Virus record (IMG/VR): IMGVR_UViG_3300024339_000012
Span: 25,237 to 89,236 of that record
Source: a virus
DNA length: 64,000 bases
Direction: 5' to 3' (one strand)
Shown here: piece by piece, positions 17,716 to 64,000 of the stretch
Layout of the letters: each line of letters begins with the position of its first letter
How positions within the stretch are numbered: the first letter of the stretch is position 1
Made by a program: the position numbers and the translations under genes
The notes under the pieces: generated by a model
What the model saw: only the letters and a program-made list of their open reading frames with translations
Databases searched by the model: none
What the model was told of the DNA's origin: nothing

Positions 17716-17769
17716 CAAAGGTAGCCTTTTTATTTCACATAACGGTTAATTAAATGAAATAAAAAGGCT
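17716..17769 (-). promoter_or_regulatory. 15-bp perfect inverted repeat abutting a -7 promoter box
   Basis: agcctttttatttca (17723-17737) / tgaaataaaaaggct (17755-17769); TACCTTTG on the minus strand at 17716-17723. Confidence 0.55.
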
Positions 17770-25086: not shown

Positions 25087-25673
25087 GATTGCATAGTTTT
25101 AAGTTCACGTTTTATAAGTATTGTTAATCTTTTCTGTTCAATTAATTCTTTAGGAATATCTAAAGATTCCAATCCATTATTATATCTTTTAATACTTTTT
25201 ATGATATAATGATCAGGTAATTCTTTGGTTCGTTTATCATCTTTCTTTTTATTCCTAACTTTCCATTTTTGAGGATTGGTCTTTCGGTCATTTCTTAATC
25301 TCTCATTTATACTATCCCTATTGTTCTTTTCATATTTACGTCTTATTTCAACAATCTTTTCAGGATACTTTTTATAATATTTATCTCGTCTTATTTTATC
25401 GTTTTCCTTTATCATTAAGTCAGCTTTTTCAGGATCTGATTTTCTAAGCTCCATTATAATAACTTTTCTTTTATATGTACTGTCAGTTTTCATTCTTTCT
25501 TTTCTGTATTCCTTTTGTTTCTTTGCATTTCGGACTCTATTTGCTTTAGCTATACATTTTTTACAAGCATAAGTAAAATAGACTCTATCATATCCTTTGC
25601 ATTTAACTGGTTTGAAGTTTTTCTTAGTTAATGGCAATTCATCACCACATTGCTTACATATTCTGGTTTCCAT
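25083..25673 (-). CDS. basic Zn-finger protein (CxxC...CxxC + K/R-rich helix)
   Basis: RICKQCG...ACKKC; start at METRIC after the repeated leader motif. Confidence 0.6.
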   Translation of the reverse strand: METRICKQCGDELPLTKKNFKPVKCKGYDRVYFTYACKKCIAKANRVRNAKKQKEYRKERMKTDSTYKRKVIIMELRKSDPEKADLMIKENDKIRRDKYYKKYPEKIVEIRRKYEKNNRDSINERLRNDRKTNPQKWKVRNKKKDDKRTKELPDHYIIKSIKRYNNGLESLDIPKELIEQKRLTILIKRELKTMQS

Positions 25674-28137: not shown

Positions 28138-28683
28138 ATGAAACCGTCAACGACACTGCGCTACAAAGAGAAGTATGAATTCAATCCTTTGACCAAATCA
28201 AATGAGATATATCTGACTAAGGATACTAAACTTATCAACGTGGATGGTAAGGAAATAGATATTGTACATGATATCCCTGCCATAGATATTTATGAAGCGT
28301 TTGTAAAATATATAACAACAGCTCTCAAGCTATCTAACAAAGCCAAAGCTGTGCTTAGGTATATTGTAATGTACAGCAAACTCACTGATGATATAACCGT
28401 TATTGATATGGATAAGCTCAAAGAGAATACAGGTTATAACTCTCTTGGGCCAATATATGCAGGATTTAATGAGCTTATCGAAGCACAGCTACTAGCAAGG
28501 ACTAAGTACGATGATCAGTTCTTTATCAATCCTAACTTCATTTATGACAAGGTAAATGTTATTGCATTAAACAATAAATATCTTATCGAGAAATACACTG
28601 AAGCACCAGTTCCAAAGAAAAAACAAGATCTACCTGCTGGTTTTGATATTTCCAGCAAGATAGATCCAGGGGAAGACTTTTAA
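28138..28683 (+). CDS. RepL-like winged-helix protein
   Basis: LS..A..VL.YI...wHTH...ELIE..LLART....FFINP.F; lone plus-strand gene with its own promoter. Confidence 0.7.
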   Translation: MKPSTTLRYKEKYEFNPLTKSNEIYLTKDTKLINVDGKEIDIVHDIPAIDIYEAFVKYITTALKLSNKAKAVLRYIVMYSKLTDDITVIDMDKLKENTGYNSLGPIYAGFNELIEAQLLARTKYDDQFFINPNFIYDKVNVIALNNKYLIEKYTEAPVPKKKQDLPAGFDISSKIDPGEDF

Positions 28684-29988: not shown

Positions 29989-30111
29989 GTTACATTTCTG
30001 ACATAGTAAACGTGAAGTGGTAAAAACAAAGAGCCACATAATGTGATCCTTTTATTGTTTACTGGTTTTGTCATCCGAGGATTTATTATTTGAACCAGCA
30101 TCCTCTGTATC

Positions 30112-30540
30112 TTACAACCAATCTTCTAATTCCTCGATTGCATCATTCAGTTTACTCTTTGCAACACTCTTTTTGTATATGATAATATCTTCTGGTGAGA
30201 AACAAAGTAGTGTGTTATCAATTCTTTTACCACGTTCACAAAGCATGAGGTATTCCTCTTTCCATGTGATAGCCTCACGGATATCACTCTTCATGGCACG
30301 AGCCTCATCCATTTCTTTGTCCATTACATAGCTAATGTCAGTACCACTGGCTTTAGCATATTCAGCGATCTCTCTGATCTTCTGTGTTTGGATTGCCATA
30401 GCGTAAAAGAGGTATTGTAGGTCAAGCTCTGACCAGTACCTCTTAAGTTTGTGACATGCAACCTTTGGTTTTGTTTCATCAAGCTTAACCTGATCATCAA
30501 TGTTCTTGTCACGTAATTCAATAACATCTGCATAATTCAT
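30112..30540 (-). CDS. hypothetical protein
   Basis: 142-aa ORF preceded by the repeated leader motif. Confidence 0.6.
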   Translation of the reverse strand: MNYADVIELRDKNIDDQVKLDETKPKVACHKLKRYWSELDLQYLFYAMAIQTQKIREIAEYAKASGTDISYVMDKEMDEARAMKSDIREAITWKEEYLMLCERGKRIDNTLLCFSPEDIIIYKKSVAKSKLNDAIEELEDWL

Positions 30541-30604
30541 AAAGCGTATAGTTTAAGTTAAAAAGAAAAATAACTCTTGCGATGATCTGCAAGAGCCACT
30601 CAAA

Positions 30605-30982
30605 CTAATTCATACTTAACCATACTGCCATGGGATAACCTGTCTTATTAAGTTTATAATAACAGTACTTGCCCTTTGGACTTTTGTGAACAATGAAACC
30701 TTTGTACTCGTGTTCTGTCTGCTCGTGAATCCAAACGGGGTATTCATTGCCACTCTTGGCACTGATGCACTTCACGAAGTTAGCGCCACTCTTAGTTTCG
30801 AATACAGGAAACACTGTTCCCTCAACATCTATTGTTTCGCCGATGTCAATGGCGATGTTCAGGTCAGTTTTAAATGGTTGTGCCTCCGAGAAGGTCTGAC
30901 CGGTACAATTAAATACTCCAATGAGTAATAATCCAACAACTGATATTGCAAGCAGTAAAGCTTTTGCACGATGATTTTTCAT
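30605..30982 (-). CDS. hypothetical secreted protein
   Basis: Signal peptide; two similar beta repeats (TKSGANF / KSPKGKY). Confidence 0.55.
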   Translation of the reverse strand: MKNHRAKALLLAISVVGLLLIGVFNCTGQTFSEAQPFKTDLNIAIDIGETIDVEGTVFPVFETKSGANFVKCISAKSGNEYPVWIHEQTEHEYKGFIVHKSPKGKYCYYKLNKTGYPMAVWLSMN

Positions 30983-31023
30983 GATAATAGTGTTTGTTAA
31001 TAGTTAAAAAGAAAAATAACTCC

Positions 31024-31188
31024 CTACTGGGGAGCTATTGGTAAAGGGTTATTCTGAATGTGTTCATAGTGTTCCTGTGCTTGTGCCTCAGCTATAGCCT
31101 CAGCATCTGCACGGGTATGACCGTCATCCATTAAGTGTACTATGTACTCTGCATCACTAATGCAATGGTATGTCTCTTCTGTACTCAT
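31024..31188 (-). CDS. hypothetical protein
   Basis: Start MSTEE after the repeated leader motif. Confidence 0.5.
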   Translation of the reverse strand: MSTEETYHCISDAEYIVHLMDDGHTRADAEAIAEAQAQEHYEHIQNNPLPIAPQ

Positions 31189-31243
31189 GGTAGCATATGT
31201 ATTGGTTAATAAGAAAAATAAGCACGCGTTAGCGTGCCTACTA

Positions 31244-31450
31244 CTACATACGTACACCTACACTCACACCTGTTGTACCTACACCTATGGCCTTGGCTCT
31301 GTTGCTGGCCTCAGTAGTAAGTGCATCATGCAAGTAGTACAATTCATTCCAACGTATAGTGTCCTTACCGTGCACCTTATACATTTCCTCTTGTACTTCA
31401 TTGATCTTGTTGTTTAACTCTTGATAAGTCATCTGCTTAATGTGTCTCAT
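31244..31450 (-). CDS. hypothetical protein (first gene of the leftward arm)
   Basis: 68-aa ORF. Confidence 0.55.
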   Translation of the reverse strand: MRHIKQMTYQELNNKINEVQEEMYKVHGKDTIRWNELYYLHDALTTEASNRAKAIGVGTTGVSVGVRM

Positions 31451-31634
31451 GTCTGTAAGATTAAATTAGTTAATTAAAAAAATAAAAAGTCTTAGCTACA
31501 CAAAACAAGCCCCCCTACCCCGATCCAAAAAGAAAAGTTGAAAAACCCGTATATGACCCTCTCGAAGTTTTCTAAAATTAAATTTTTTTTGGTTTCACGT
31601 TTACGTGCCTTATTATGGATTCGCTTATAAGTTG

Positions 31635-31642
31635 TATATTTG
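31635..31642 (+). promoter_or_regulatory. -7 promoter box upstream of the cassette-array operon
   Basis: TATATTTG about 40 nt before ATG 31682. Confidence 0.55.
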
Positions 31643-31681
31643 TAGTGATTATTTTTCTTTTAGAATTTAAAATTTTAATTT

Positions 31682-31936
31682 ATGAAAACGTATATTGATA
31701 GTGCTGGCAGTTCTCATCATATTGACGAGAATAATATTTTTGGATTGGCTTATATAAAACCTGTAATGATTATTGTAAATGGTTTGTGTGTAAGTTTTAA
31801 TGGTAAGGATGCGGCTACTGATGCTTATGAGGAGTTATTGCATACTATGATGGCTAAGGCTCAGAAGGAGAAGGATAGGCTTGCTGTAAAGGCTAATAAT
31901 GAGAGGGTGGAGAAGTTGAGGGAGTTGTATGGGTAA
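31682..31936 (+). CDS. hypothetical protein; its stop codon is the TAA of the first attC-like site
   Basis: 84-aa ORF ending at GGG-TAA-C. Confidence 0.6.
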   Translation: MKTYIDSAGSSHHIDENNIFGLAYIKPVMIIVNGLCVSFNGKDAATDAYEELLHTMMAKAQKEKDRLAVKANNERVEKLRELYG

Positions 31937-32062
31937 CGGTTTGACTATGTTTAGTGCCGACAAAAAGAAACGAAATTTTTATAAACTTAAACACTTTAGA
32001 AATGAAAAAAGGAACTAATAAATTACCACAAAATGAGGCATTAAATATAAGTATTGTTATGC
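31931..32062 (+). repeat. attC-like hairpin element 1
   Basis: gggTAAC...GTTatgc; arms tatgtttagtgcc (31946-58) / ggcattaaatata (32037-49). Confidence 0.7.
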
Positions 32063-32238
32063 CCCGTTTTAAGGTTTTCACCTACTCGGTATACAAAACA
32101 GATAAAATAGGATATTGCCATTGGGCAAAGGGGCTTAATATGATTATTGAAAAAGATGGTGTAAAAATAGAGCTAAGTAGTGATGAGGTGCAAAAGATAG
32201 TAAAATCTTTGCCCCGTACAATAGGGGGCAGATACTAA
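32002..32238 (+). CDS. cassette gene 1, hypothetical
   Basis: ATG in the loop of element 1; reads through the right arm (ALNISIVMPR). Confidence 0.55.
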   Translation: MKKGTNKLPQNEALNISIVMPRFKVFTYSVYKTDKIGYCHWAKGLNMIIEKDGVKIELSSDEVQKIVKSLPRTIGGRY

Positions 32239-32243
32239 ATGGG

Positions 32244-32372
32244 GCATAACGGTGTTGGTATGTTGTCGTTGCGTAATTATAATACAAATTTTAAAAATAT
32301 AGCAAATGATACAGTTTATTAAAAACCTATTTAATGGCAGTAAGCAGCAATGCAATATACCTGTTGTTAGGC
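32244..32372 (+). repeat. attC-like hairpin element 2
   Basis: gcaTAAC...GTTaggc; arms ggtatgttgtcgttgc (32257-72) / gcaatgcaatatacc (32347-61). Confidence 0.7.
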
Positions 32373-32596
32373 GTATGTGCCTTGAGCAGGAGGAAATGAA
32401 TGAATACCAATACACGGATGTAGTTATTAATGTACTGAATGTCCCTTTTATGACTTTAACGGAGAGTAAAATGGGAAACGTATGGTATCATGATGAAATT
32501 GATGCATTATTTTGTTTAACAGCAAGAGGCTTTAAGGTTATAAAAGGTAGTAAGAAAATATTGTTTGAGCGTGGACTTGGGAGGCATTACGCCTAA
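32306..32596 (+). CDS. cassette gene 2, hypothetical
   Basis: ATG in the loop of element 2 (QQCNIPVVRR); stop is the TAA of element 3. Confidence 0.55.
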   Translation: MIQFIKNLFNGSKQQCNIPVVRRMCLEQEEMNEYQYTDVVINVLNVPFMTLTESKMGNVWYHDEIDALFCLTARGFKVIKGSKKILFERGLGRHYA

Positions 32597-32678
32597 CGGT
32601 TTGTGTATGGCAAGTAGCCCAAGCCAACGAATTAAAAACTAAATATTAATAGGCTATTTGCTATACACGTTGTTATGT
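32591..32678 (+). repeat. attC-like hairpin element 3
   Basis: gccTAAC...GTTatgt; arms gtgtatggcaagtagcc (32603-19) / ggctatttgctatacac (32652-68). Confidence 0.7.
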
Positions 32679-32712
32679 GTTGTGCGGATTTAAAGCAAAA
32701 AACTTAATTAAA

Positions 32713-33123
32713 ATGACTGATAAAGAGATTTACGAAAGATTTATGTTATGGATGGGAATGAAGCCTTCTAAAACAAAACAAGTAGAAGAAAACACAGTAA
32801 TAAGATATGAGGATATTGACAACTGTGATGTTAGATTTACAAAAACTGGTTATGGTGAATTTTATGCTGGTGCTGCTATAAAGGGTGGTAAGAAAGTTGC
32901 GAGAGCTGGTTGGAACGGCAGGGATATGTATGCTGTTATAATGCCAGGGTATCCAGATGGCGTTACTGTGAATGAAGTGACACAGAAAGCGCATAATCTT
33001 CCGGAAGGAACTGTTTTGTATTACAGGCCCTATTTCCAATTGTACACAGCACAGAAGGATGTGGCGATGTGGGCACCGAGTGGATCGGATGCATTGGCAG
33101 AGGATTGGTTGATTGTTGAGTAA
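32713..33123 (+). CDS. Tad2-like (DUF2829) anti-defence sponge domain with an unrelated N-terminal segment
   Basis: IK.GKKVARAGWNG..MY...PY.......WAPS.SDALAEDW.IVE signature. Confidence 0.8.
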   Translation: MTDKEIYERFMLWMGMKPSKTKQVEENTVIRYEDIDNCDVRFTKTGYGEFYAGAAIKGGKKVARAGWNGRDMYAVIMPGYPDGVTVNEVTQKAHNLPEGTVLYYRPYFQLYTAQKDVAMWAPSGSDALAEDWLIVE

Positions 33124-33163
33124 TCAGCGATAATTATTTTCTTTTTTGTTTGTTATTAATACT

Positions 33164-33205
33164 ACAGTCCGTTGGTTGTCATGATTGATCAACGGGCTGT
33201 TTTTT
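33164..33205 (+). terminator. intrinsic terminator
   Basis: acagtccgttg...caacgggctgt followed by a T-run. Confidence 0.7.
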
Positions 33206-33218
33206 AAACCTGATAAGA

Positions 33219-33599
33219 ATGTTAAGTAAAGTAAAACAAATTGCGATACAACCGATAGTTGAATATCTGAAAGAAAATGCTGTTGGAAAAGAAAATGAAG
33301 TTAAGAATATAGAACTTAAATGCTACATATCCGACTGGTATAATATTTCTCTTGAAGATACTGATGTAAGAAGAATAATTAATTTGATCAGATTGAATAG
33401 ATTAATTAAAGGATTACTTGCGGGAAAGAAAGGTTATTACATTTCTACCAAGGTTGAAGAGGTTGACGCTTATGTAACCTCACTTAAGAAAAGAATAATG
33501 AAGCTACAGCAACTGGCAGGCTCATTTGAGAAAGGATATGACGAGATACTGAATCCAAAACAAATATCAGAAAATAAGGATGTCGATGCTGACTTCTAA
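33219..33599 (+). CDS. putative wHTH DNA-binding protein
   Basis: D..VRRIIN.IR.......L.A..KGYYI...EE...Y..SL pattern. Confidence 0.65.
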   Translation: MLSKVKQIAIQPIVEYLKENAVGKENEVKNIELKCYISDWYNISLEDTDVRRIINLIRLNRLIKGLLAGKKGYYISTKVEEVDAYVTSLKKRIMKLQQLAGSFEKGYDEILNPKQISENKDVDADF

Positions 33600-33678
33600 G
33601 ATAATTACTTTATATTTGTAGCCAATAAGTGAAACGATGTGATTATTTTTATTTTTAACCAAACAATAGTAATAGTGT

Positions 33679-33969
33679 ATGAATAGAATGTTTAGTGTCG
33701 ATGAAATAATCGATCAGAATGCATTTCGAGTATCAATCCAAAAATACGCTACCGAGTTTACCCCGCGCTCAATTGAGAAATTTGAGAATCAGGCAATGTC
33801 ATGTAGTAGCATTGGCCCTGTTATATGGTGGTGTGAAATCGGAAGAGTATTCTCCGGAACAATATATATTTTCGAAAGTGTAGAGGACTATAACAAGTTC
33901 ACAAAATTAAACCAGGATCTTAAATTTAAAATAAACTTTATACCATGGGCAAAAAAATTAGAATCGTAA
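33679..33969 (+). CDS. hypothetical protein
   Basis: 96-aa ORF after TATATTTG at 33611. Confidence 0.5.
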   Translation: MNRMFSVDEIIDQNAFRVSIQKYATEFTPRSIEKFENQAMSCSSIGPVIWWCEIGRVFSGTIYIFESVEDYNKFTKLNQDLKFKINFIPWAKKLES

Positions 33970-34715
33970 GTATTAAACTTCTCAACGATGGAATGAGAGG
34001 CGTTGAATATGTGGCTGACAGCCCAGTATTCAAACAGAACGTTGAGATTAAAACCTCGGCAAAAGTAACATATCCATTACCGGTACCAGACGAGATCAAG
34101 AATTTGATCCAACGCATGAAACGCTACATGCTGCATCTATCAGGACATTGGATTAAGGAATACGATAAGTTCCTTAGCAAAGGTGAAATAGTTGATACAG
34201 GTGATAATGATGAAAATTATTACAAACTTGTATCACTGATGCAGAAAACTAAAGTTGAAACAATAGCTCGCGTCAATAACAAGTTTGATATAAAAGGCAT
34301 CTTCATTAATGAATGGCATCTTGTAGTTAAAATCGAAGTTAAGGGAATTACAATAAATACAGGATACAGTGATTATACCAAAGTTAATAAAGGTATGAAT
34401 CATATATTCGACCTTACAACAGCTTGGATTTTTGAGGATAATATCCGTAAGATGAATTCTACACAGTACATGCTGAAACTATGGGAGGGCAAAGAGGAAT
34501 TGCTTGAACGCCTTAATGATCTTGATGAAGGTCAGATTGACGAGTTAATGATTAAACACCTTGAGGAAAAAGGCCATCTTGTATTGCAGGAAGATCTCGA
34601 ACATAAGACTGACGAGAAAGTTCAGGATACCGGTACTACAGAAAAAACAGATGACAGTGTTGCTCCTGAACCTGAAGAAAAGGATTTAGAAAGCGACAAA
34701 AAGGTTGAGCTGTAA
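33945..34715 (+). CDS. hypothetical protein
   Basis: 256-aa ORF with an acidic tail. Confidence 0.6.
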   Translation: MGKKIRIVSIKLLNDGMRGVEYVADSPVFKQNVEIKTSAKVTYPLPVPDEIKNLIQRMKRYMLHLSGHWIKEYDKFLSKGEIVDTGDNDENYYKLVSLMQKTKVETIARVNNKFDIKGIFINEWHLVVKIEVKGITINTGYSDYTKVNKGMNHIFDLTTAWIFEDNIRKMNSTQYMLKLWEGKEELLERLNDLDEGQIDELMIKHLEEKGHLVLQEDLEHKTDEKVQDTGTTEKTDDSVAPEPEEKDLESDKKVEL

Positions 34716-35605
34716 TGATAGCCAGAACTAAAGATATTGTTTTTGAACCAATAAAGCATACTTACACCCATGTAGAAACTGGTCTCCTATTGAGATCGGT
34801 TTCTCGTGTATATAGAGAGTTCATTGAACCCTTTGATGCAGAAAAGATAAGTTGGTTTGTTGCTCAAAAAGAATTACGACTTGAGATAAGTCCTACATGG
34901 CAGAAAGGTGATCCACAACCCAGTGATCAAGCAATCTTGGAAAGACAGAAGATTGTAAAAGCTCAATGGGAAAAGAAGCGTGACGATGCTGGTGGATACG
35001 GAACTACTATTCATGACATCTGTGAAAAGATAATGCTTGGTCAGGAAGTTGATCCTGTCTATGGCAAATTAGTAGTTGCTCTTAATGGCTTATTCGGTCA
35101 CTACCACAAAACATTTCCTGAGTTCATTGCATACTCTATGAAATGGGGAGTGGCTGGAACACCCGACTTGCCACTTGTAAGGCAACGCTCAGATAAATCT
35201 ATTATTGATATTGATGACTTTAAGACCAATGTTGAAAAAGGAATTGTCTTTGACTCTACGAGCCTTGATAAAAAATCAGGCAAACTAAAACATTACAACC
35301 GATTCATGTTAGATCCTGTATCTCACCTTGAAGATTGTAATTATAATAACTATGCTCTTGCCGAGAGTATTTACGGTGTACTATTGGAAGATATGTTTCC
35401 AACTCATAAGATTGGGCGAATCAGTTTAACATTTGTCGAAGAGCATATATTGCCTGGTCTAAACGACTACACTATTACTACTATACCCATGCCGTACTTG
35501 AAACTTGAAGCGATCGCTATACTAAATGCGTTTAATAAAAAGTATCCATTCAAGAGTGAAAAGAAGATAAAAGTTGTCGAAACGTCGGGAACTGAAGATT
35601 TTTAG
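34715..35605 (+). CDS. PD-(D/E)XK (Cas4/RecB-like) exonuclease
   Basis: F....H.Y, SVS, GT.IH, E......VAGTPD, I.DFKTN, Y.L..S.Y; usual crAss position before the terminase. Confidence 0.8.
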   Translation: MIARTKDIVFEPIKHTYTHVETGLLLRSVSRVYREFIEPFDAEKISWFVAQKELRLEISPTWQKGDPQPSDQAILERQKIVKAQWEKKRDDAGGYGTTIHDICEKIMLGQEVDPVYGKLVVALNGLFGHYHKTFPEFIAYSMKWGVAGTPDLPLVRQRSDKSIIDIDDFKTNVEKGIVFDSTSLDKKSGKLKHYNRFMLDPVSHLEDCNYNNYALAESIYGVLLEDMFPTHKIGRISLTFVEEHILPGLNDYTITTIPMPYLKLEAIAILNAFNKKYPFKSEKKIKVVETSGTEDF

Positions 35606-35660
35606 TACTTTTGCAATGTTTCACACACTAAACAGCATTTGGTTAAATGTTAAACATCGG

Positions 35661-35691
35661 AACCTCTACCACTCGGTAGGGGTTTTTTTTT
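35661..35691 (+). terminator. intrinsic terminator
   Basis: aacctctacc-actc-ggtaggggtt followed by a T-run. Confidence 0.75.
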
Positions 35692-35739
35692 GACACAAGA
35701 ATTGGTTTATGCTTTCTTTGTTGAAAATCTCTCTCTATT

Positions 35740-36297
35740 ATGCCCGGTATATTTACAGTCAACAATAGCCATACGGTTATTCTTTCCTCAGAAGCAGTTA
35801 AACTCTGCACAGAACTTTCCAAACTTACAGAAGAACAGGTGCTCTATATAATCTTAGCTTATGATTATTTAGATAGTCCATGGCGTAGATATCCACTTGA
35901 GGATCGGAAACGACTTTCTAAAAGAAAAATTTGGGGTGATCAGGAATTTGTCCCGGAAGAATTTGCCAACATGCAATTGGCGATCGACGAATACAAAGGA
36001 TTGATTTACGATATAGATTATGAGATGCGTGATGCATTGCTCAGTAAATTAAAAACCTTAGATCATAATCTGATTATCGAAACAGATACAAGTAAGATTA
36101 ATTTGATATTACGTTCTCAGGATATTTTAAAAGCCAGGCTCGATGAACTTGATATAAAAATTGATATAAAGCAGGAAGCTATAAAACTTAAATCCAGTAA
36201 GAAGCTCAGTTATATTGAAATGTTCATGCGTAATCGCGAACAGTACAATATAAAAATGGCTGAAGTAATGAGATTAAAGGAAGAAGCTGATGCTTAA
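35740..36297 (+). CDS. protein upstream of the terminase (possible small subunit)
   Basis: Helical 185-aa ORF overlapping the TerL start; YI...D..SP.R.Y motif; assigned by synteny. Confidence 0.45.
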   Translation: MPGIFTVNNSHTVILSSEAVKLCTELSKLTEEQVLYIILAYDYLDSPWRRYPLEDRKRLSKRKIWGDQEFVPEEFANMQLAIDEYKGLIYDIDYEMRDALLSKLKTLDHNLIIETDTSKINLILRSQDILKARLDELDIKIDIKQEAIKLKSSKKLSYIEMFMRNREQYNIKMAEVMRLKEEADA

Positions 36298-38317
36298 TCT
36301 TGACAGGACAGAGTATATCTATACTCCCATAATTAAACAGGGTGGGTTTAATCCCTCTCCTGTAGCTGGCAGAATTCCTTACTGGGCGGATTCTATATCG
36401 AATCCAAAATGTGCAGGAACTAAAGCATGGGAAGATTTCTGGCTTGAGCAAATATATTATTGTTTCAATGGATACGATACTGGTGGCATACATATACCCG
36501 GGCCATATTATCACTACCTGAATTTCAATTCGATTAAAGGATTACATGGAACGATATACCCTCACTTTCTTGACGTTCACCAATCCTTATTTACCATTCG
36601 TGAAGAGATTAAAGCAGATGACACTCTTGTAGGAGCGATCATACCAAAGGCCCGTAGAAAGGGTCTTTCTTTATTTGGTAATGCACTGGCCGCTTATGGC
36701 ATGCGCTTTATTGAGGATTACCGAATGGCTGTAGCTGGTGGTCTTGAACGCTATGTAAATGGTTTCCGTGCCAAGTTATATATGTCGTACAATAACGTTC
36801 CTCCGGAACTTGCCTTGAATCACATTCGCAGAAATAGCGAAGAGATAGTTGTGGGTTATGAGGAAATGATCAACAATCAATATGAAGATGTAATTAATGC
36901 AATTGGTCTTTTCAAAACTTTACAGGACAAAGCATCAAAACTTGAAGGTGAGTTTTTCCATGATTGTATTTTTGAAGAGATGGGCGAATTTGAGAACTCA
37001 AGACCGGCATATGAGTCTATACGTCCAGCGCTTGAAATTGGTGAACAAACAAAGGGTACGTTCTGGTTCTACGGCACAGGTGGTAACATGCTTAAAGGAT
37101 CAGGTCCGTTCAAACAATTCTGGCATGAGGCTGAATCATACGGATTAGTAAAATTCTTTATCAGTGGTGCTCGTTACTATTTTCCATATTATCGTGGAGC
37201 TGTAAACCAAGATGGAATAAGCGAAGCCAAGACTCCAATACTCGACGCACAATATCCAGATCTAAAACCTGAACAGCTATTAGGTTGTGAAGATGTTAAA
37301 GCTGCTACTGATTCAATCAAGACTGAACGTTTAAAGAGAGCTAAGAATCCAAACAAAAAAGCATTAGCCGAATGGAACCAAAAATATCCACTAACAGTTG
37401 AGGAAGTATTTACATCTTCAGGATTTAATAATTTCAACAGCGATCTTCTTTATAATCAGCAATACCAAAATGATTCTAAGGAACGCAGATGGACTGAGCA
37501 TGTACTTGACTTTGTAAAAGATGACAAAGGAAATATTCAGTTACCACTTGAAGTAACAGCAAGACCGGCAAAGAAAACTGATAAGGAATGGGAGATTGTA
37601 GATATATACCTGCATCCTAAAAAGAATTATAAAAATCTTGACATTGGTGGTTTCGATGGTTATAACGAAGATCTAACTTTAACAAGTAAATCCCTGGGGG
37701 GAATTGTTGTTGTCAGAAGATTCGACGAATTTGAATATGCCGAAAAGGAACATAATGAAAAAACGGTTATCTGCCATTACATGAAGCGACCACCGAGAAA
37801 AGAACTTCATTGGGATATTGGATTAAAGGTTGCTGTTTATTATGGCCTGCTAAAAAATATGATGATATCTGCAGAGAGTGATCTTGTCATTGGATACTTC
37901 AAAGCAAACAACGGCAGAAAGTTTTTATCACCACGTCCTAAGTCATTCGAATCACAAGATTCAAAATTAGTTCATGACTATGGTGCAAAAATGACGACAT
38001 ATTCTAAGCCAAGGATGTTAGGTTTACTACAAAGTTTTGTAGAAGATTCTATAATGACATGTTTCTTTAATGTGCTTATACAAAACTTCCTTGCTTATGA
38101 CTATGAGAACATCGGAACTGACTGGGATGATGTTGATGCACTCGGGCTGGCACTCATGAGAATCAGCGACATGAAACAAAAACCTGAGAAGACTGGAGAT
38201 GCAGAATCATATGAAATTGAGATGGGCTTAGGTGATTTTAAACTGGTAAATGGTGAGATCGTAATGGAGGGAGAATATGATGATTCTCTTGATCAGGATT
38301 TCAGTTCTATGTTTTAA
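36290..38317 (+). CDS. terL: terminase large subunit (crAss-type)
   Basis: G.YYHYLNF, KARRKGLS Walker A, IFEEMGEF Walker B, GTGG, YP.T.EE.F, RNase-H GGFDGY and DDVDA. Confidence 0.9.
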   Translation: MLNLDRTEYIYTPIIKQGGFNPSPVAGRIPYWADSISNPKCAGTKAWEDFWLEQIYYCFNGYDTGGIHIPGPYYHYLNFNSIKGLHGTIYPHFLDVHQSLFTIREEIKADDTLVGAIIPKARRKGLSLFGNALAAYGMRFIEDYRMAVAGGLERYVNGFRAKLYMSYNNVPPELALNHIRRNSEEIVVGYEEMINNQYEDVINAIGLFKTLQDKASKLEGEFFHDCIFEEMGEFENSRPAYESIRPALEIGEQTKGTFWFYGTGGNMLKGSGPFKQFWHEAESYGLVKFFISGARYYFPYYRGAVNQDGISEAKTPILDAQYPDLKPEQLLGCEDVKAATDSIKTERLKRAKNPNKKALAEWNQKYPLTVEEVFTSSGFNNFNSDLLYNQQYQNDSKERRWTEHVLDFVKDDKGNIQLPLEVTARPAKKTDKEWEIVDIYLHPKKNYKNLDIGGFDGYNEDLTLTSKSLGGIVVVRRFDEFEYAEKEHNEKTVICHYMKRPPRKELHWDIGLKVAVYYGLLKNMMISAESDLVIGYFKANNGRKFLSPRPKSFESQDSKLVHDYGAKMTTYSKPRMLGLLQSFVEDSIMTCFFNVLIQNFLAYDYENIGTDWDDVDALGLALMRISDMKQKPEKTGDAESYEIEMGLGDFKLVNGEIVMEGEYDDSLDQDFSSMF

Positions 38318-38371
38318 CAGTTGACATATTTCTCATAATTTGTTTTTTTTGTATTAAATAAGAACAAAATA

Positions 38372-40573
38372 ATGTCATTACCTATAGCGACAGTTGAATC
38401 TGAAAAGACCAAGGATAAGAATATGGAATACATTGATTCCATAATTCAATTCCATAAAAACAATGCAGGTGTTAGGGAAACAGTCATAAACGACCTATAT
38501 GATTCCTATAATGGCATTGTTAAAAAGAAAACTAAAGTTCTACTTGAGAAGAAATTCGGAAAACAGATATCAACCCAATTCCTCGACTACAAGTTGGGGC
38601 ATGCTAAAATAAAGCTCTTAAAGGGCGAGTACTTAGGTATTGAATTCTCTCCAACCGTAACATCAATAAACCCAGACATACTTGACAAAAGGATAAAGTT
38701 CGCCAACAAATTACGTGGCGCAGCTAAAATGAAAAAATTCCTCACTGCATTAAAGAAGCAACATGACGTAGATCCTATGGAGGGGCTTGACATTCCTGAA
38801 CCAGATGATCCGGACATGCAAAACAAAATGTTTCCGAAGACTGCTAACGAAATTGTTATGCAGCATATCATTGACGAAAAGATTGAATCAGGATACTTAA
38901 AGCTAAAAGGCCAAAGCACTTTCATGGATATTATAATTGGAAGTGAATGTCATGCAGTTGTTGAGAGAGACGCTTATGGTGAGGATACCATAAGAATGAT
39001 AGCTCCTGAAGATGCCGTATTTCAGGAACTGACTGACGATCCATTTGCTCTTGAATCTCCATTCAAAGGTGAACGTAAGTGGATGTATGTCAAAGATGTT
39101 ATTACTCGGTTTCCAAAATTAACAGATCCGGAACGCAAAAGATTAAAAGAAGGTTTTGCAATGGCTTCTGGTAATCATGGAGGTGATAACAAAGGTTTCC
39201 GTTCAATCAATGGTATTCCTGCAGTTGAGGTTTATATTCTACAATGGAAGAATACGAAAGCTGAATACACTAAGGTTACTGAAGTTGATGGCAAACCCAA
39301 CTATTACAGAGACATTACAAAAAAATACACTGAGGATAAGAAGTATAAGAAAGAAGTCGATCGTGATGTTAAGGCAGGTAAGTATAAAGTTGAAGTTGAT
39401 TACCATGACGATCTATGGCAAGGTATAAGAATTGATCAGGATATCTATACTGAAGTTGAAAGGACTGAATCACAAATCCAAAGATTAACAAGCAGCAATA
39501 AATACCGGGCTGAATACGATTATGTTAATTTCCTTTTCGGAACAGTCAATGGTATTCGTATGAGTCTTCAGGGACTAATCTCAGGACTTTCTGAAGTGAA
39601 CAATATTATCATGCATATGATGGTGCGTGAAATAAAGAAAATGAAAGGAAAAGTTTTCGTTTATGATGAAGCTGTAAAGCCTAAGCATAAGCTAATGAAA
39701 AACATTTTCTTTGACATTACTGAAAATGGTGTAATCACTATCAACTCAAGTGCTGAAGGTAACTTTAGCAATACCGATGTTCAGAATGCAGTCAAACTTA
39801 TACAGGAATTAGATCTTGGTCTTTCACAGAGTTTTGATATACTTCTCAAAGTAAAGAATGATGTTGAGAATACGATGGATCGTATTACCGGCATCAATGA
39901 AAGCAGGGAAGGTCAAAGTCCAACCTCACAGACTGCTACTGGTACAATGCAGAACATTGAAGCATCAAGATCAATTACCAGAGATATATTCTACGGACAT
40001 CAAATGTTTATGAATAGATTGTTCTCTAATTTAGTTGAGAAAACGAAATTGAATGCAAAGTATCTGGATTCCAATCGTGCTAAGATATTACTTGGCGACA
40101 ATGGAATAAATTTCATAAAAGCATCTTCGGACTTTATGTTCGATGACTTTGATGTTAAGTTCACTGATGGTGGCAGGGAAAAGGAAATTCGTGATAAGGT
40201 AGCCAGGTTCTTTGATGTTGAGATTAACAGTGGAAATCTAAGGACTCAAGATGTTATTAAGTTTGATATGACTAAGAATCTTAATGATGGTATCAGGGTA
40301 CTTCAAGCTGCATGGGGAACTATAACTCAAGTAAGACGTGAGGAACTTCAGGCACAAAGCGAACAGCAACAGCAACAAATACAAGGACAGCAACAATTAG
40401 CACAGGAAGATCGTGAAGATCGTCAAGCTCATGAGAAGGAATTGAAACAAATGGATCTTGATAGTAAAGAACGTACCAAAGGAACTGAACTTGAACAAAA
40501 GGATAAATCTGATCAGGTAAAATCTGACACAATTATAAATAAAGAATCTATATCTAATAACGATTCAAATTAA
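38372..40573 (+). CDS. portal protein
   Basis: 733 aa after TerL; YNG..., LDLGLS, ITGI...REGQ, Q-rich coiled C-terminus. Confidence 0.85.
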   Translation: MSLPIATVESEKTKDKNMEYIDSIIQFHKNNAGVRETVINDLYDSYNGIVKKKTKVLLEKKFGKQISTQFLDYKLGHAKIKLLKGEYLGIEFSPTVTSINPDILDKRIKFANKLRGAAKMKKFLTALKKQHDVDPMEGLDIPEPDDPDMQNKMFPKTANEIVMQHIIDEKIESGYLKLKGQSTFMDIIIGSECHAVVERDAYGEDTIRMIAPEDAVFQELTDDPFALESPFKGERKWMYVKDVITRFPKLTDPERKRLKEGFAMASGNHGGDNKGFRSINGIPAVEVYILQWKNTKAEYTKVTEVDGKPNYYRDITKKYTEDKKYKKEVDRDVKAGKYKVEVDYHDDLWQGIRIDQDIYTEVERTESQIQRLTSSNKYRAEYDYVNFLFGTVNGIRMSLQGLISGLSEVNNIIMHMMVREIKKMKGKVFVYDEAVKPKHKLMKNIFFDITENGVITINSSAEGNFSNTDVQNAVKLIQELDLGLSQSFDILLKVKNDVENTMDRITGINESREGQSPTSQTATGTMQNIEASRSITRDIFYGHQMFMNRLFSNLVEKTKLNAKYLDSNRAKILLGDNGINFIKASSDFMFDDFDVKFTDGGREKEIRDKVARFFDVEINSGNLRTQDVIKFDMTKNLNDGIRVLQAAWGTITQVRREELQAQSEQQQQQIQGQQQLAQEDREDRQAHEKELKQMDLDSKERTKGTELEQKDKSDQVKSDTIINKESISNNDSN

Positions 40574-40583
40574 ACTCTCTATC

Positions 40584-41873
40584 ATGAAAAATGAAAATGG
40601 AAATGAAATTGATGAAAACAAAGACCTCAACGATCCTAAGAAAACTGGATATGAAGGCACAGGTGAGACCGACACGTTTGGTCAAATAGAAGTTGAAGAC
40701 AATGTTGAAACTCCCGGTGAGAAGAAACCTGCCATTGACGAAGAAAAAGCCAAAGCCAAAGATCTTGAGAAAGATGACAAGGATGGCGAACAGAAGGCCA
40801 AAGATCAGGCTGCTGAATTTGAGGCTGAACAGGAAAAAACAGGTAAGGAACTTGAAGAAGAAATTGACAAAGACCTACCTGATGCTGAAAAGGATAAGGA
40901 CAAAGAAAAAGACAAGGAAACTGTTGATGACAAGGACAAAGAAAAAGAGCCTGAACTGTTCGATACTGATAAGCTGGAAGAGGATCTGGAAACAGAAACC
41001 AATGTTAAGAAAACTGCTGAAACTGTCAACTGGGAAGATGTTTCTAAAACTATCAAATTACCAGATGACTTAAAGATCGTTCCTAAAGAAAATACTCTTG
41101 AGGGATTTAAAGAAGCCGTTAAAGTTTCCATTGAAGCCGCAACCAAAAAGACTGAATTCAATCTTGATGGTTTTGAAGATGATACCAAAGAAGTTATTAA
41201 TTACTTTGTAAATAAAGGCAGTAAGGAAGACTTACTTAGACCATTAAAAGAAATTGATGATTACATAATAATGAAGCCAGAGGAAAAGGTAAAAGAATTC
41301 CTGATGGAGTCTGAAAAGTTATCTGAAGAAGATGCTGATGCCAAGATCAATGATATGATTGAGGCAGAAACATTTGATGCCAAGGTTAAGGATATTGACA
41401 GTAAACTACTTAACTTAAGGGAGACTACATTTAAAAGTATTATCTCTAAAAGGCAGGATGACACTACTGTTTTGGCAGAAGCCAAGAAAGAAGAAAATAA
41501 AGAAATGACCGACTATGTTGACGAAATGAAATCCTTTATGGGGGTTAAACTTCCAGACAAAGTTAAATCATATATCAAAAAAGAAATTGATGCCGGAAAG
41601 TTAGCAAAGATGAATAACAATGCAGAAGCACAGGTTCTCGCTCGCTTATTTATGCTTTACGGAACAGATATTCTCAAAAAAATCAATGAAGGAACAAAAG
41701 ATGCTTCTCGTAAGGGGTATAATGATGGATTGAAAAAAGAAAAAAGTAAAATCCATAATTTGCCTCCTAAAGAAAAGGCCAAAAGCGCTATTGAACAGCA
41801 GAAGCAAAGTATTTCGACAGATCCTCTTGCATTGTTTGAGAATATGGATGACGATTCTATTGGCATAGAATAG
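40584..41873 (+). CDS. acidic scaffold-like protein
   Basis: Very D/E/K-rich, between portal and major capsid. Confidence 0.6.
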   Translation: MKNENGNEIDENKDLNDPKKTGYEGTGETDTFGQIEVEDNVETPGEKKPAIDEEKAKAKDLEKDDKDGEQKAKDQAAEFEAEQEKTGKELEEEIDKDLPDAEKDKDKEKDKETVDDKDKEKEPELFDTDKLEEDLETETNVKKTAETVNWEDVSKTIKLPDDLKIVPKENTLEGFKEAVKVSIEAATKKTEFNLDGFEDDTKEVINYFVNKGSKEDLLRPLKEIDDYIIMKPEEKVKEFLMESEKLSEEDADAKINDMIEAETFDAKVKDIDSKLLNLRETTFKSIISKRQDDTTVLAEAKKEENKEMTDYVDEMKSFMGVKLPDKVKSYIKKEIDAGKLAKMNNNAEAQVLARLFMLYGTDILKKINEGTKDASRKGYNDGLKKEKSKIHNLPPKEKAKSAIEQQKQSISTDPLALFENMDDDSIGIE

Positions 41874-63100: not shown

Positions 63101-64000
63101 TTTGATCAGATGAAAGAAGAGGGCGTTTCCTCTCCTGAAAGAAAGATTTACAACATATCTCATTTGCCTGGTGCAGAAAAAGCATTTAAGAATGAAAAAA
63201 CATTAAAAGCTTTCTTAAAAAGACTTGCAAAAGATGAGCCAGTTCTTGCCGGCATACTCAATGATGAAAATCTAATTAGTAAGAATAATTTACTAAGTTT
63301 GTTCAACTTTTCATCTAACACATGGTTAATACCAAGTATATCAATAAAGAGGAATAAAAAAGGTGTTCCAAGAATAATTAACATAAGTCAAAAAGAGAGT
63401 GTTACCGAGAGTATTAACACCATTAAAAAGACAATAAATAACTTTACATATGAAGACTCGAAAACCACAGCCGCTGCCATCAACAAAATGTACAACGACT
63501 ATTTCCAAGGGCCAGATTCAAAAGCCTCCAAAATTCGCAATGATACACCTGAGAAACAACAAAGAGCTAAACTCGACAGTCTCTATAACGAATTCCTAAC
63601 GAAATTAACAGGTTTAGACTGGTCAGGTTATCTGAACAGTCCAAGTACTGAAGAAGAATACGCAAGCGGTAAAATCGACAAACCGAATATCATTAAGTAC
63701 ATGAAAATCGGTGCCAACAGATTTGTTGGTTTTGCAGACTCCAAGAAAAAAGCGAGAGACTATTTCATCACTACCCCTAAGAATGTACAGTCTGAATCCA
63801 ATGTTGTTAAGTTAGTCAATACAGCAAAAGGAACAGATAATATCTCATTCAGATTTAGGAGTGTAGATAATACTATGGAAAGCAGTCTTGAACAGTCTTC
63901 CAACTTTTTACGTTCACTTCATTCTGCAGGTAATAGCATTGATCATGCTGAATATAAAAACAATGGTGTAACTCAACATCTTGCTAAAAATCCTCTTAAT
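57131..64000 (+). CDS. giant virion cargo protein (>2290 aa, truncated by the window) with a zincin-like metallopeptidase motif
   Basis: Starts MADEKKKYSVSEFAEIIRNKY; same frame at the checkpoints read (62342-62560 and the window end); FIHELFH at 62351-62371 and FYALKDVHEFISELF; probably missing from the ORF track because no stop occurs before the window edge. Confidence 0.8.
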   Translation, partial: MADEKKKYSVSEFAEIIRNKYTGAYDDKSDEDLVGAWLKKYPTYADSISDSRSIPKVEESKRAQSQRPFTRDNGIDENGKTSESSHKMATEIYDGKWYSFPTIFPKEGNTGSRDPKDWIDYKKDHDGAYQEAKKRGEVFGFGDDKEKALKFGEGSWKPKESEVSEESKEPDKKGYETISINGSPVDVRRNDDGEVIAKHPKAQQWKPISEWEESNPDFWKKAVKAYTDKINQPVQTIKDKRVSDYQFKRKILTDEIDQINLLLIRLRKERPKPMYADERGGKSIQKLDDAIKALEIYDEQYKDAGKLISYTEKVQKDYSTYVPTGQEKDIINTSKAAFKQNEIHVADLYLSSSQNKEWVLKTKEEELDKQIKDLNSLNVSDEEKESHKKKLDDLNTKKTRTSFELAKHLKASNDDGIERIKELRVQIDNEEDPDKIEELENEIRIQQGLSDAFFKAKGDVDKYQKEATKQAINNNSDEIVSMLDAIPANATEEEALNIYFQALLSEQQDLLEETNTGTAIGNYMSIFADIFVPRKAYERLAEITPIIRSIAPIVTLNKLPDRLADTDEKALTGNWIEKAVENVGKGFGVTVKEAMKAFLPATAMGDDHTTTKNEAEALSQTIEKLGLKDAVNLVPQEVLEDRDSFDRWTAGWLGEKTGPTMAIMLPMMVGSMAYTKLARLSKPLRALDKIAKTGKVTKGAFAATKATKLGRFGQKAGKSLVRGGAKAIKTGFQYETGGIIFSGNELIADEADFLSGFLGTVGEGGVMVIPIMLSKVFGKNLRPFMELAARFAKKVARPIGGGIGESSEEFLQSTWQIYRDSDTAKQFEEQWLQQFGDRTERFDFFAHTFMMGMAFRGAAQFGEMMADASAKTYFGLSKEEKKQADEFVKKYIQDYEKQQRKEFIGYTAEFDDDNLSILHEDAKAWVEDAKKGKNKSEIKEAEEALKGYEAELKRRKIRDEHSQVKANIEFLEATKAQQLQNKSVLKLKTKAERKKAALIDLAIKNIDEQLVDLNEKMDKARIEEAKATLPVVEFEKVNLQKKISELTPEEIEDYESAKEYYEFSKVIDNPEILEKAKKELIATKKQKLINHVYSLELRDKESNKIIEDDVAKQEEVKAQKVISDNHREQSLVEEHIHNLENKLEEQNRLPNPSESIVKKLEGEISDSKTELELLSEQEKELTKKQEKVTPKKKVTIPEKETLKAEISINVLEADEAIDNGEKLSQKQIDQAYNDAFDEIDRLDKEKGNEAQIAELYTFIDKLEKYGTENKVQPKETPTLESEVKTKETTEGKTVSTARETWKSKKSQRIKDEHLKFSDFDGGYVISEGKLGNVNKDNKGNYTVNFNDGSKQAVAKGERLVSKKMYPVRGEIHIHDNDMVSFGDSPFKWKLTGIGKGTIPESMKLKNDTEEIEVTDPALVEPIVRNKLETEVVENGNVEQLELELDFELKKEEEKKEKKEKPQVEIKSKKPEDVKESTDKSGYVSIMPKAHKEVTRTTGGGGASAAVTSNLISEKPQVGDVLEIRIADNPSGVKQFITGKVYKHFINIFKNGKQVGGIKYESKEEAAYLKAISEGKQPKALITSVNDKSLSFELVVPKTGAKPTATEDVFESFKSKKPKESAQDLIDDVFIKIDEINKDRKANPNPKEFELFNSTSGTLKYLWNLVKNNGSTTYKGRGAQNLLNTLEKSKDPVIAEIVRLLKPNLGRLENIIFNGQALGSKANSQRIQIGKLDSNNQFNAVFIHELFHSAVGYKIEQLSKGVGTAQELANYEQLKELFEFTKEKAIEEGQDFYALKDVHEFISELFTNKEFFNWANNTQYNNKSVIDQVIDLLAKLFGLKSGSIAHNGFELAFKIADTKTDYQSSSVLANEAAADKILQDKVRFVVENEEFYINNFAELLHGLYHSDKYDVPPSPTSLIIDLKEVLYAHEKYGEAIRLSHIVDANRQQLIKIAKLFKDDKEFLEYESEIEQTFQSSSAQRMSSQRKAFLPLFDQMKEEGVSSPERKIYNISHLPGAEKAFKNEKTLKAFLKRLAKDEPVLAGILNDENLISKNNLLSLFNFSSNTWLIPSISIKRNKKGVPRIINISQKESVTESINTIKKTINNFTYEDSKTTAAAINKMYNDYFQGPDSKASKIRNDTPEKQQRAKLDSLYNEFLTKLTGLDWSGYLNSPSTEEEYASGKIDKPNIIKYMKIGANRFVGFADSKKKARDYFITTPKNVQSESNVVKLVNTAKGTDNISFRFRSVDNTMESSLEQSSNFLRSLHSAGNSIDHAEYKNNGVTQHLAKNPLN

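Follow-up and report, generated by a model that had tools for sequence, protein, structure and literature searches.

Do the three hairpins between small genes in the early region of a marine phage mark the borders of mobile gene cassettes, and what would recombine such cassettes in a phage that has no integrase of its own? The question is raised by the stretch of 64,000 nucleotides at positions 25,237 to 89,236 of IMG/VR record IMGVR_UViG_3300024339_000012 (hereinafter the window, with positions counted from its first letter), in which three hairpin elements, E1 to E3, lie among open reading frames ORF1 to ORF4 (Table 1). A reading made from the letters alone (hereinafter the sequence-only reading) had described them as an integrase-less array resembling the attC sites of integrons. 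We consider it likely, with a probability of roughly 65%, that E1–E3 belong to a Bacteroidota family of attC-like recombination sites acting as folded single-stranded DNA, and that the window holds two complete cassettes and a terminal site. This reading draws on the observed membership of the elements in one family, covariation, strand polarity, host arrays beside a recombinase, and cassette-sized blocks common to phages.

Hairpin anatomy and offset complementarity in the window

All three elements opened with TAACGGT (at 31934, 32247, and 32594) and closed with TTGTTA (GTTA at 32056, 32366, and 32672; read directly), and the plus strand between them folded to a long imperfect hairpin with an AT-rich loop of 45–80 nt. 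No U-tract was present after the stems. The minus strand folded far worse as RNA: E3 reached −34.5 kcal/mol on the plus strand (z −3.9) and −22.0 kcal/mol on the minus strand, and E1 and E2 formed no hairpin on the latter. When DNA parameters were used, E3 was the sole standout (−11.7 kcal/mol, z −2.3). An Rfam search of 31000–33600 returned four chance-level matches (E 2–9) and no fitting RNA family.

Two covariance models were built from such elements: R1 from 25 phage elements, including E1 and E2 but not E3, and R2 only from 132 host chromosomal copies, E3 being in neither training set. In the window, R1 recovered these three sites and no others (E1, 80.5 bits; E2, 69.6 bits; E3, 47.4 bits; E 4e-15 to 9e-8). 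R2 matched the same three at full length (E2, 64.8 bits, E 4e-11; E1, 60.4 bits, E 3.4e-10; E3, 52.7 bits, E up to 1.5e-8), with no further site over the 64 kb at E ≤ 0.01. The spaced element pattern was matched twice against 0.10 expected, and the heptamer TAACGGT occurred 15 times in the window against 3.55 expected. The 12 copies outside the array (e.g., at 17740, 22068, 43171, and 46056) had no hairpin, were mostly coding, and were matched by neither model. A pattern match at 28313–28402 on the minus strand, likewise matched by neither R1 nor R2, was rejected.

The flanks of any single element in the window were not complementary to each other (3 + 2, 4 + 1, and 7 + 2 of 12). Instead, the sequence behind each element paired with the sequence ahead of the next one, as is characteristic of classical attC cassettes, whose ends are complementary across the cassette and not within one integrated site. 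Around ORF2, 14 nt from the GTT of E1 paired with 14 nt ending in the AAC of E2, and beyond the core this bracket comprised 10 Watson-Crick pairs and one G.T pair over 12 nt. Around ORF3, 17 nt from the GTT of E2 paired with 16 nt ending in the AAC of E3, with one bulged T. The G.T pair stood at position 8 after GTT from E1 to E2, and also from E2 to E3 when the one bulged T is allowed for. The full RYYYAAC...GTTRRRY consensus fitted GCCTAAC and GTTAGGC but not GGGTAAC, GCATAAC, GTTATGC, or GTTATGT; AAC and GTT were present in every case. ORF1 has no closing flank stem and marks the 5′ edge of the array. No closing flank of E3 was noticed on reading the sequence to 33200, for which no search was run; ORF4 comes after E3, yet it is not a closed cassette.

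The GTT was an in-frame valine codon at E1 and E2, and was out of frame with ORF4 at E3. The sequence-only reading had listed three hairpins of one grammar, complementarity offset to the next element, gene stops at the cores, start codons in the loops, and in-frame GTT at the first two elements, and it was correct in every one of these details. Its observation is thus confirmed, and its interpretation is supported in part, as set out below.

A second copy of the hairpin was seen elsewhere in the community. A short contig in DNA runs X3 (302 nt) and X9 carried the arms of E3 (32594–32612 and 32659–32679) around an 11-nt loop instead of one of 46 nt and between other flanks, and its match to E3 began exactly at the T of TAAC.

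One site family in phages and host chromosomes

Homologs of ORF2 and ORF3 were encoded on IMG/VR records G001–G005 and metagenome loci L057–L070, and these phage contigs bore arrays of the same build with 4 to more than 12 elements. In the consensus fold, TAACG is paired with YGTTA, followed by a 4-nt bulge on the 5′ side, 4 bp, a 1×1 C.A mismatch, and an inner helix of ~15 bp with many G.U or G.T pairs, closed by a loop of ~10–200 nt; many elements were 120–129 nt long. Among the 25 aligned phage elements, compensatory changes were found at 14/14 predicted pairs. The same alignment held 39 G.U against 6 C.A cells, so that folding is open to one strand only. Phage genes were bracketed by stems that nearly always consisted of 11 Watson-Crick pairs and one G.T pair, which fell at base 8 after GTT and had its G in the 5′ half. 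ORF2 homologs in different phages were enclosed by brackets that differed in sequence yet were still complementary, so that covariation extended across a whole gene.

The six phage records concerned, which span a complete 33.5-kb genome, a complete 70-kb genome, and the present 89-kb record, had almost no genes in common except the cassette genes. ORF2 homologs occurred in 4–5 otherwise unrelated phage records, each time inside such a cassette, and ORF3 had 23 homologs besides itself. Genes in or beside the phage arrays included DNA methylases and a Tad2-like gene. No match to the integrase family PF00589 was found in the two complete phage genomes or in the entire 89,236-base record containing the window, which upholds the earlier description of the array as integrase-less.

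One of the phage records (G001) was binned in a metagenome-assembled genome of a Flavobacterium sp., in which R1 found 29 sites, many on non-phage contigs. Further, R1 matched 87 of 101 genomes sampled from the family of this host, the Flavobacteriaceae. The 132 sites in 15 fetched host stretches lay on one strand only within each stretch. Offset complementarity was detected in 78 of 111 neighbouring pairs, with the G.T pair at position 8 in 78/78, as compared with 174 of 5000 control pairings made at random and 12 of 126 made within the same site. The one-sided wobble also appeared in the host sites (406 G.T against 60 A.C cells).

In six host arrays (G006:C186, G086:C7, G086:C6, G095:C1, G072:C17, and G043:C13), a gene for a tyrosine recombinase, codirectional with the cassette genes, directly preceded the array on its 5′ side. 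In G006:C186, the gene for this 345-aa protein ends ~120 nt before the first cassette. The protein scored 233 bits against NCBIfam NF040815 (XerA / integron integrase; cut-off 220) and 211 bits against the IntI model TIGR02249 (cut-off 265), the latter in two stretches that left the middle part of the model unmatched, and it was far under the cut-offs of the XerC and XerD models. Homologs with 43–52% identity were present in 5/5 further genomes and were distinct from the housekeeping Xer proteins (31–34%). No such enzyme lies 5′ of the array in the phage. The sequence-only reading had looked to a trans-acting or unknown recombinase and to IntI-like enzymes in the host. A trans-acting Bacteroidota enzyme is a sound proposal, given the same sites downstream of an Xer-like recombinase in Flavobacteriaceae, but in kind the enzyme is not unknown: it is Xer/IntI-like, and it was found beside the six host arrays and not in the phage record.

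The largest host array examined (G095:C1:531650-612000; L102, L103, L090, and L091) comprised ~90 sites over ~80 kb, beginning 1.5 kb behind the recombinase, and was comparable in size to a Vibrio superintegron. Within the host array in G006:C186 (L082, 12983–18066), a 181-aa ORF followed by an IS110-family transposase occurred twice, which resembles a duplicated cassette plus insertion sequence.

The orientation of the genes bears on whether the element works in RNA or in DNA. Of 101 host intervals with an ORF, 100 had it on the strand opposite the one that folds, and a further 11 intervals contained no ORF; of 38 such phage intervals, 35 had the ORF on the folding strand itself, and a further 3 contained none. 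The phages have thus turned the site family round relative to the hosts. Phage ORFs started at −42 to −65 relative to GTT in 20 of the 38 cassettes and at +19 to +56 in 11, and the other 7 had no start within 60 nt after GTT. Stops fell within 18 nt of AAC in 32/38 cassettes, and at −13 in 15/38.

These regular start and stop positions, together with the coincidence of folding strand and sense strand, would suit hairpins that serve chiefly as mRNA elements, which would hold the start codon in an open AT-rich loop and bracket cistrons for insulation, stability, or processing, with exchange as a side effect. The better fold with RNA parameters agrees with such a role, as does a metatranscriptome contig (31879–32080) that spans E1 unbroken and in which DNA carry-over is possible. 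However, the same family, with the same fixed G.T and wobble, stands antisense to the genes in the host intervals counted above and beside a dedicated recombinase, and Rfam gave no match. A structure kept antisense to a hundred host genes is not an mRNA element, and the family works at the DNA level. A reading confined to RNA had been rated at not far below even odds before the host test, and was rejected as the primary explanation on the orientation counts (100/101 vs 35/38). We regard a chiefly mRNA function as unlikely, and a secondary, co-opted role of the hairpins in translation as likely.

Cassette-sized blocks shared between phages

The site-specific reading of the hairpins, as attC-like sites, was further examined in blocks shared by otherwise unrelated genomes. 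The ORF2 modules of G001 and G004, a 33-kb and a 70-kb phage with almost nothing else in common, had 94% DNA identity from 10 nt before GTT to 8 nt past the next AAC. Units of hairpin plus ORF2 common to G003, G004, and L063 (84–88%) extended from AAC−1 to AAC+3 to +11. Right ends of the shared blocks always fell at the AAC core (+1 to +11), and left ends fell at AAC or near GTT. The earlier view of the elements as attC-like cassette boundaries is supported.

The units running from AAC to AAC indicate that each hairpin moves together with the gene that follows it, start codon included. The sequence-only reading had proposed a crossover at G/TT that would swap translation starts while keeping the frame. 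This proposal was not supported: GTT was a codon in only 7 of the 20 cassettes that start in the loop, lying in frame 2 in 12 and in frame 1 in one, and the right block ends pointed to whole units of hairpin plus gene. Because each gene brings along the start codon in its own hairpin, there is no need for a swap at GTT that keeps the frame.

Several observations weigh against the recombination-site reading. R2 was derived from R1 matches, and R1 was trained on E1 and E2, so that the two models are not fully independent. DNA parameters gave weak hairpins in the window, with no long hairpin for E1 and a z of +0.29 for E2, and the window hairpins were more stable with RNA parameters. The G.T excess in the hosts is in part a product of the model, which itself selects the strand. 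Two host stretches (L096 and L101) had no recombinase homolog on the expected side. Some shared blocks begin near GTT (−2 to −16) and not at AAC, and G001 and L059 have a lone hairpin in common at 96% identity, set between genes that differ on either side; exchange is thus not confined to one core, and may also take place at the 3′ core or within the arms through rarer recombination of the other strand or through homology. No joint at any core and no excision junction was seen in contigs of DNA runs X3, X9, and X12, so that the rearrangements and circle junctions foreseen in the sequence-only reading did not appear; contigs of this kind hide rare forms, and coverage was missing in several bins of X12 and of RNA run X22. 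The X3 contig was colinear across 31000–32779, and shorter X9 and X12 contigs fitted parts of the array without rearrangement. Finally, with no integrase in the phage record, a host enzyme would have to act in trans during infection.

The position of block ends at both cores and sometimes inside the arms would also be expected of linkers such as the promoter early stem-loops (PeSLs) of T4-type phages, at which modules are shuffled by homologous recombination between conserved intergenic sequences, with no site-specific recombinase in the phages. The six phage records have no common recombinase and hardly any common genes, and in the accessible accounts PeSLs shuffle T4-type phage modules and yield mini-circles (PMC2839356, PMC4122927). 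Homology of this kind is poorly provided for here: the common cores are only 5 nt long, the arms differ between copies, and neither a terminator U-tract nor a sigma-70 promoter was seen in the elements. Moreover, the fixed bulge, the fixed mismatch, and the G.T at a fixed place point to protein recognition, and the host arrays are tied to a recombinase. This makes shuffling by homology alone a slightly poorer candidate than an mRNA function.

Least probable is an inert relic, a row of cassettes captured once and now fixed, which would fit the colinear array in X3, X9, and X12 contigs and a sole nearby polymorphism, a 345-nt ORF4 deletion, that lies off the cores, but all three sites still match the host model at full length and with high scores, both brackets retain their pairing and the fixed G.T, and contigs cannot reveal rare excision.

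The locus, known systems, and a proposed mechanism

The array lies immediately behind a divergence of gene blocks on the minus and plus strands at about 31450–31680. A candidate promoter element precedes ORF1, and its TAnnTTTG motif is presumably the Bacteroidota consensus. No Pfam or PHROG family was matched by ORF1–ORF3, and a search of the ESM Atlas with ORF2 and ORF3 gave no usable match. Identical ORF2 and ORF3 were present in 12–14 contigs. The C-terminus VKSLPRTIGG was invariant in the ORF2 family. In the alignments, the peptide N-I-P/H-V-V-R appeared in the N-termini of both unrelated families, ORF2 and ORF3; it is the translated conserved return arm and core, so that the recombination site dictates part of these proteins.

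Table 1. Coordinates of the array, its genes, and its pairing flanks in the window.
Feature	Position	Strand	Remarks
Candidate Bacteroidota-type −7 promoter element, TAnnTTTG motif TATATTTG	31635–31642	+	Motif scan; 47 nt upstream of ORF1 start
ORF1, 84 aa	31682–31936	+	Stop codon is the TAA of the first core
E1	31934–32060	+	TAACG core, 5′ bulge, imperfect stem, AT-rich loop with ORF2 start, return arm, TGTTA
Cassette A (putative, crossover at AA/C)	31937–32249	+	E1 hairpin, ORF2, and closing flank
ORF2, 78 aa	32002–32238	+	Start inside E1 loop; ends 9 nt before TAAC of E2
ORF2 bracket, 5′ half	32056–32069	+	GTTA + 10 nt; G of fixed G.T at 32066
ORF2 bracket, 3′ half	32237–32250	+	10 nt + TAAC
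E2	32247–32370	+	AT-rich loop contains ORF3 start
Cassette B (putative, crossover at AA/C)	32250–32596	+	E2 hairpin, ORF3, and closing flank
ORF3, 96 aa	32306–32596	+	Start inside E2 loop; stop is the TAA of the third core
ORF3 bracket, 5′ half	32366–32382	+	One bulged T, then G.T; read directly
ORF3 bracket, 3′ half	32582–32597	+	Read directly
E3	32594–32676	+	Short-loop copy; last site of the array
ORF4, Tad2-like (Thoeris anti-defence 2-like domain)	32713–33123	+	PF11195, E 1.1e-17; PHROG 1048 and 872

Part or all of the stretch was found in 21 seawater or marine DNA runs, and the phage is thus marine. Only 8 records were matched by the large terminase, at ~22% identity; judged by their names, at least 7 of these belong to crAss-like phages, so the label crAss-like is only distantly supported by sequence. 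Searches of 50,697 phage records with the locus (blastn) and with ORF2 (tblastn) returned no match, and relatives sought via the exonuclease and terminase yielded one useful contig (L006), which begins downstream of the locus. The first and last 483 bases of the record (G000:C1:3-485 and 88754-89236, the latter being 63518–64000 of the window) were 92.5% identical; the record may be nearer complete (terminally redundant or circularly assembled) than its 65% completeness estimate, or the similarity may reflect an internal repeat of a giant ORF.

Two further observations concern the edges of the locus. X9 contigs diverged before 31651 and after 31685, which means that the 35-nt ORF1 leader between these positions is joined on either side to other sequence in some genomes there. 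The ORF4 deletion mentioned above (32780–33124) extended from codon 23 to one base past the stop, removing nearly the whole gene; it was found in a 24.8-kb X3 contig and in an X9 contig, with breakpoints off the hairpin cores.

The system has only partial published precedents. Classical integrons and clusters of attC sites lacking integron integrases (CALINs) resemble it in their AAC...GTT inverse cores, imperfect hairpins with unpaired features and a variable loop, offset-complementary cassette ends, and the folding of one strand. The host arrays agree further in the order of gene then site and in the tyrosine recombinase beside the array, and the phage copies, like CALINs, have no integrase. 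They differ in the paired core region, which is 14–16 bp with a fixed G.T here and 7 bp in integrons, and in the many one-sided G.T pairs that seem to set strand choice. In addition, the host recombinase is Xer-like, under the cut-off of the IntI model as given above, and points the same way as the array; an IntI with its specific extra domain was found neither beside the phage array nor in the host enzyme. The classical arrangement, with the folding strand antisense to the gene and the gene before the site, was present in the hosts but not in the window, in keeping with the position of phage genes on the folding strand, often with a start codon within the site.

For the virulent Polaribacter phage P12002L, a CALIN has been reported that contains two methyltransferases and two predicted attC sites, one of which IntI1 recombined into attI1 in Escherichia coli (Qi et al., 2023, PMC9892861). 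With filters off, R2 detected 11 sites in this phage, on the gene strand at 30007–40949 among the methyltransferase genes, and the published CALIN site is likely to be one of them. Under default filters, R2 gave no match and R1 gave two matches elsewhere in the record. An R1 site (L071, 14502–14626, plus strand; 37.5 bits) lies between tail genes, on the other strand and far from the methyltransferase arrays.

The layout of the six Flavobacteriaceae arrays, with the recombinase 5′ of the array, is also that of the recombinase-associated acquired interbacterial defense (rAID-1) arrays (bioRxiv 10.1101/471110; PMC12247911). In the accessible parts of these sources, rAID-1 is defined by a 5′ XerD-like recombinase (>44% identity to the Bacteroides fragilis reference), at least two co-directional low-GC genes, and a repeated intergenic motif, and it is described for gut Bacteroidales and immunity genes; those parts make no mention of hairpin anatomy, offset complementarity, or phages, and the likeness drawn here is one of layout alone. 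PeSLs, too, are repeated intergenic stem-loops; they lie on either side of small accessory genes where the genomes of virulent phages are plastic, and modules are exchanged at them, but each PeSL combines a sigma-70 promoter with a terminator, and its recombination is by homology (Arbiol et al., 2010, PMC2839356; Comeau et al., 2014, PMC4122927). Unlike these, the present elements have no U-tract, have conserved cores with offset complementary flanks, and recur beside a host recombinase; by U-tract and loop size they are not an early sigma-70-type promoter joined to a terminator stem-loop. A literature search outside subscription journals and supplements found no account of how these hairpins are built, of the arrays in Flavobacteriaceae, or of the reversed gene orientation in phages.

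The folding strand of a site reads flank X, TAACG, the 4-nt bulge, a short helix, the C.A mismatch, a ~15-bp G.T-rich helix, and the AT-rich loop, followed by the return arm, TGTTA, and flank X′. X′ pairs with the X before the next site via the fixed G.T at position 8, and an excised circular cassette would therefore carry one long continuous hairpin. The one-sided G.T pairs would keep the complementary strand unfolded, and may in this way set the polarity of the site.

In integrons, the target of IntI is the bottom strand in its folded form, with the cut placed between the A and C of the 5′ AAC. By analogy, an Xer-like enzyme may cut at the 5′ TAA/C of the folded strand, between AA and C. With such a crossover, a phage cassette would consist of hairpin, gene, and closing flank, which fits the blocks running from AAC to AAC. 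The putative limits of cassettes A and B follow the block ends in other phages and the folded-strand cleavage of integrons. Host genes lie antisense to the folding strand, and each comes before its site, the order known from integrons. In phages, the hairpin heads each cassette and often supplies its AT-rich leader, its start codon, and the first ~17 codons, and the core often supplies the stop codon of the preceding gene. In the window, the two complete cassettes (E1 with ORF2 and E2 with ORF3) and the terminal E3 before the Tad2-like gene are placed just behind the early divergent promoter region. A phage array with no integrase is probably serviced in trans, and the phage probably borrows the gene-capture machinery of its host.

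More tentatively, and at somewhat less than even odds, virulent integrase-less phages of Flavobacteriia may hijack the Xer-like cassette recombinase of their hosts to load and shuffle accessory genes, with phage and host cassette pools as mirror images within one site family. If so, host cassettes would be read antisense to the folding strand and phage cassettes along it, and a cassette crossing from one pool to the other would be silent. The recombination site would double as 5′ leader, start codon, and N-terminus, and the core as stop codon.

Integrons are the textbook gene-capture system and are known mainly from Proteobacteria and IntI. The sites described here show integron logic with a different recombinase and a longer, wobble-polarised site, abundant in Flavobacteriaceae chromosomes and reaching unrelated virulent phages, including a crAss-related marine phage. 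For rAID-type arrays, in which the "conserved intergenic motifs" had no described anatomy, the family supplies a mechanism that can be tested, and its sites are compact and portable enough to be of use for engineering cassettes in Bacteroidota. Action of the host enzyme on phage DNA, if it takes place, would provide phages and hosts with a direct route for trading or separately stocking defence and counter-defence genes, and would explain the hypervariable early regions of Bacteroidota phages.

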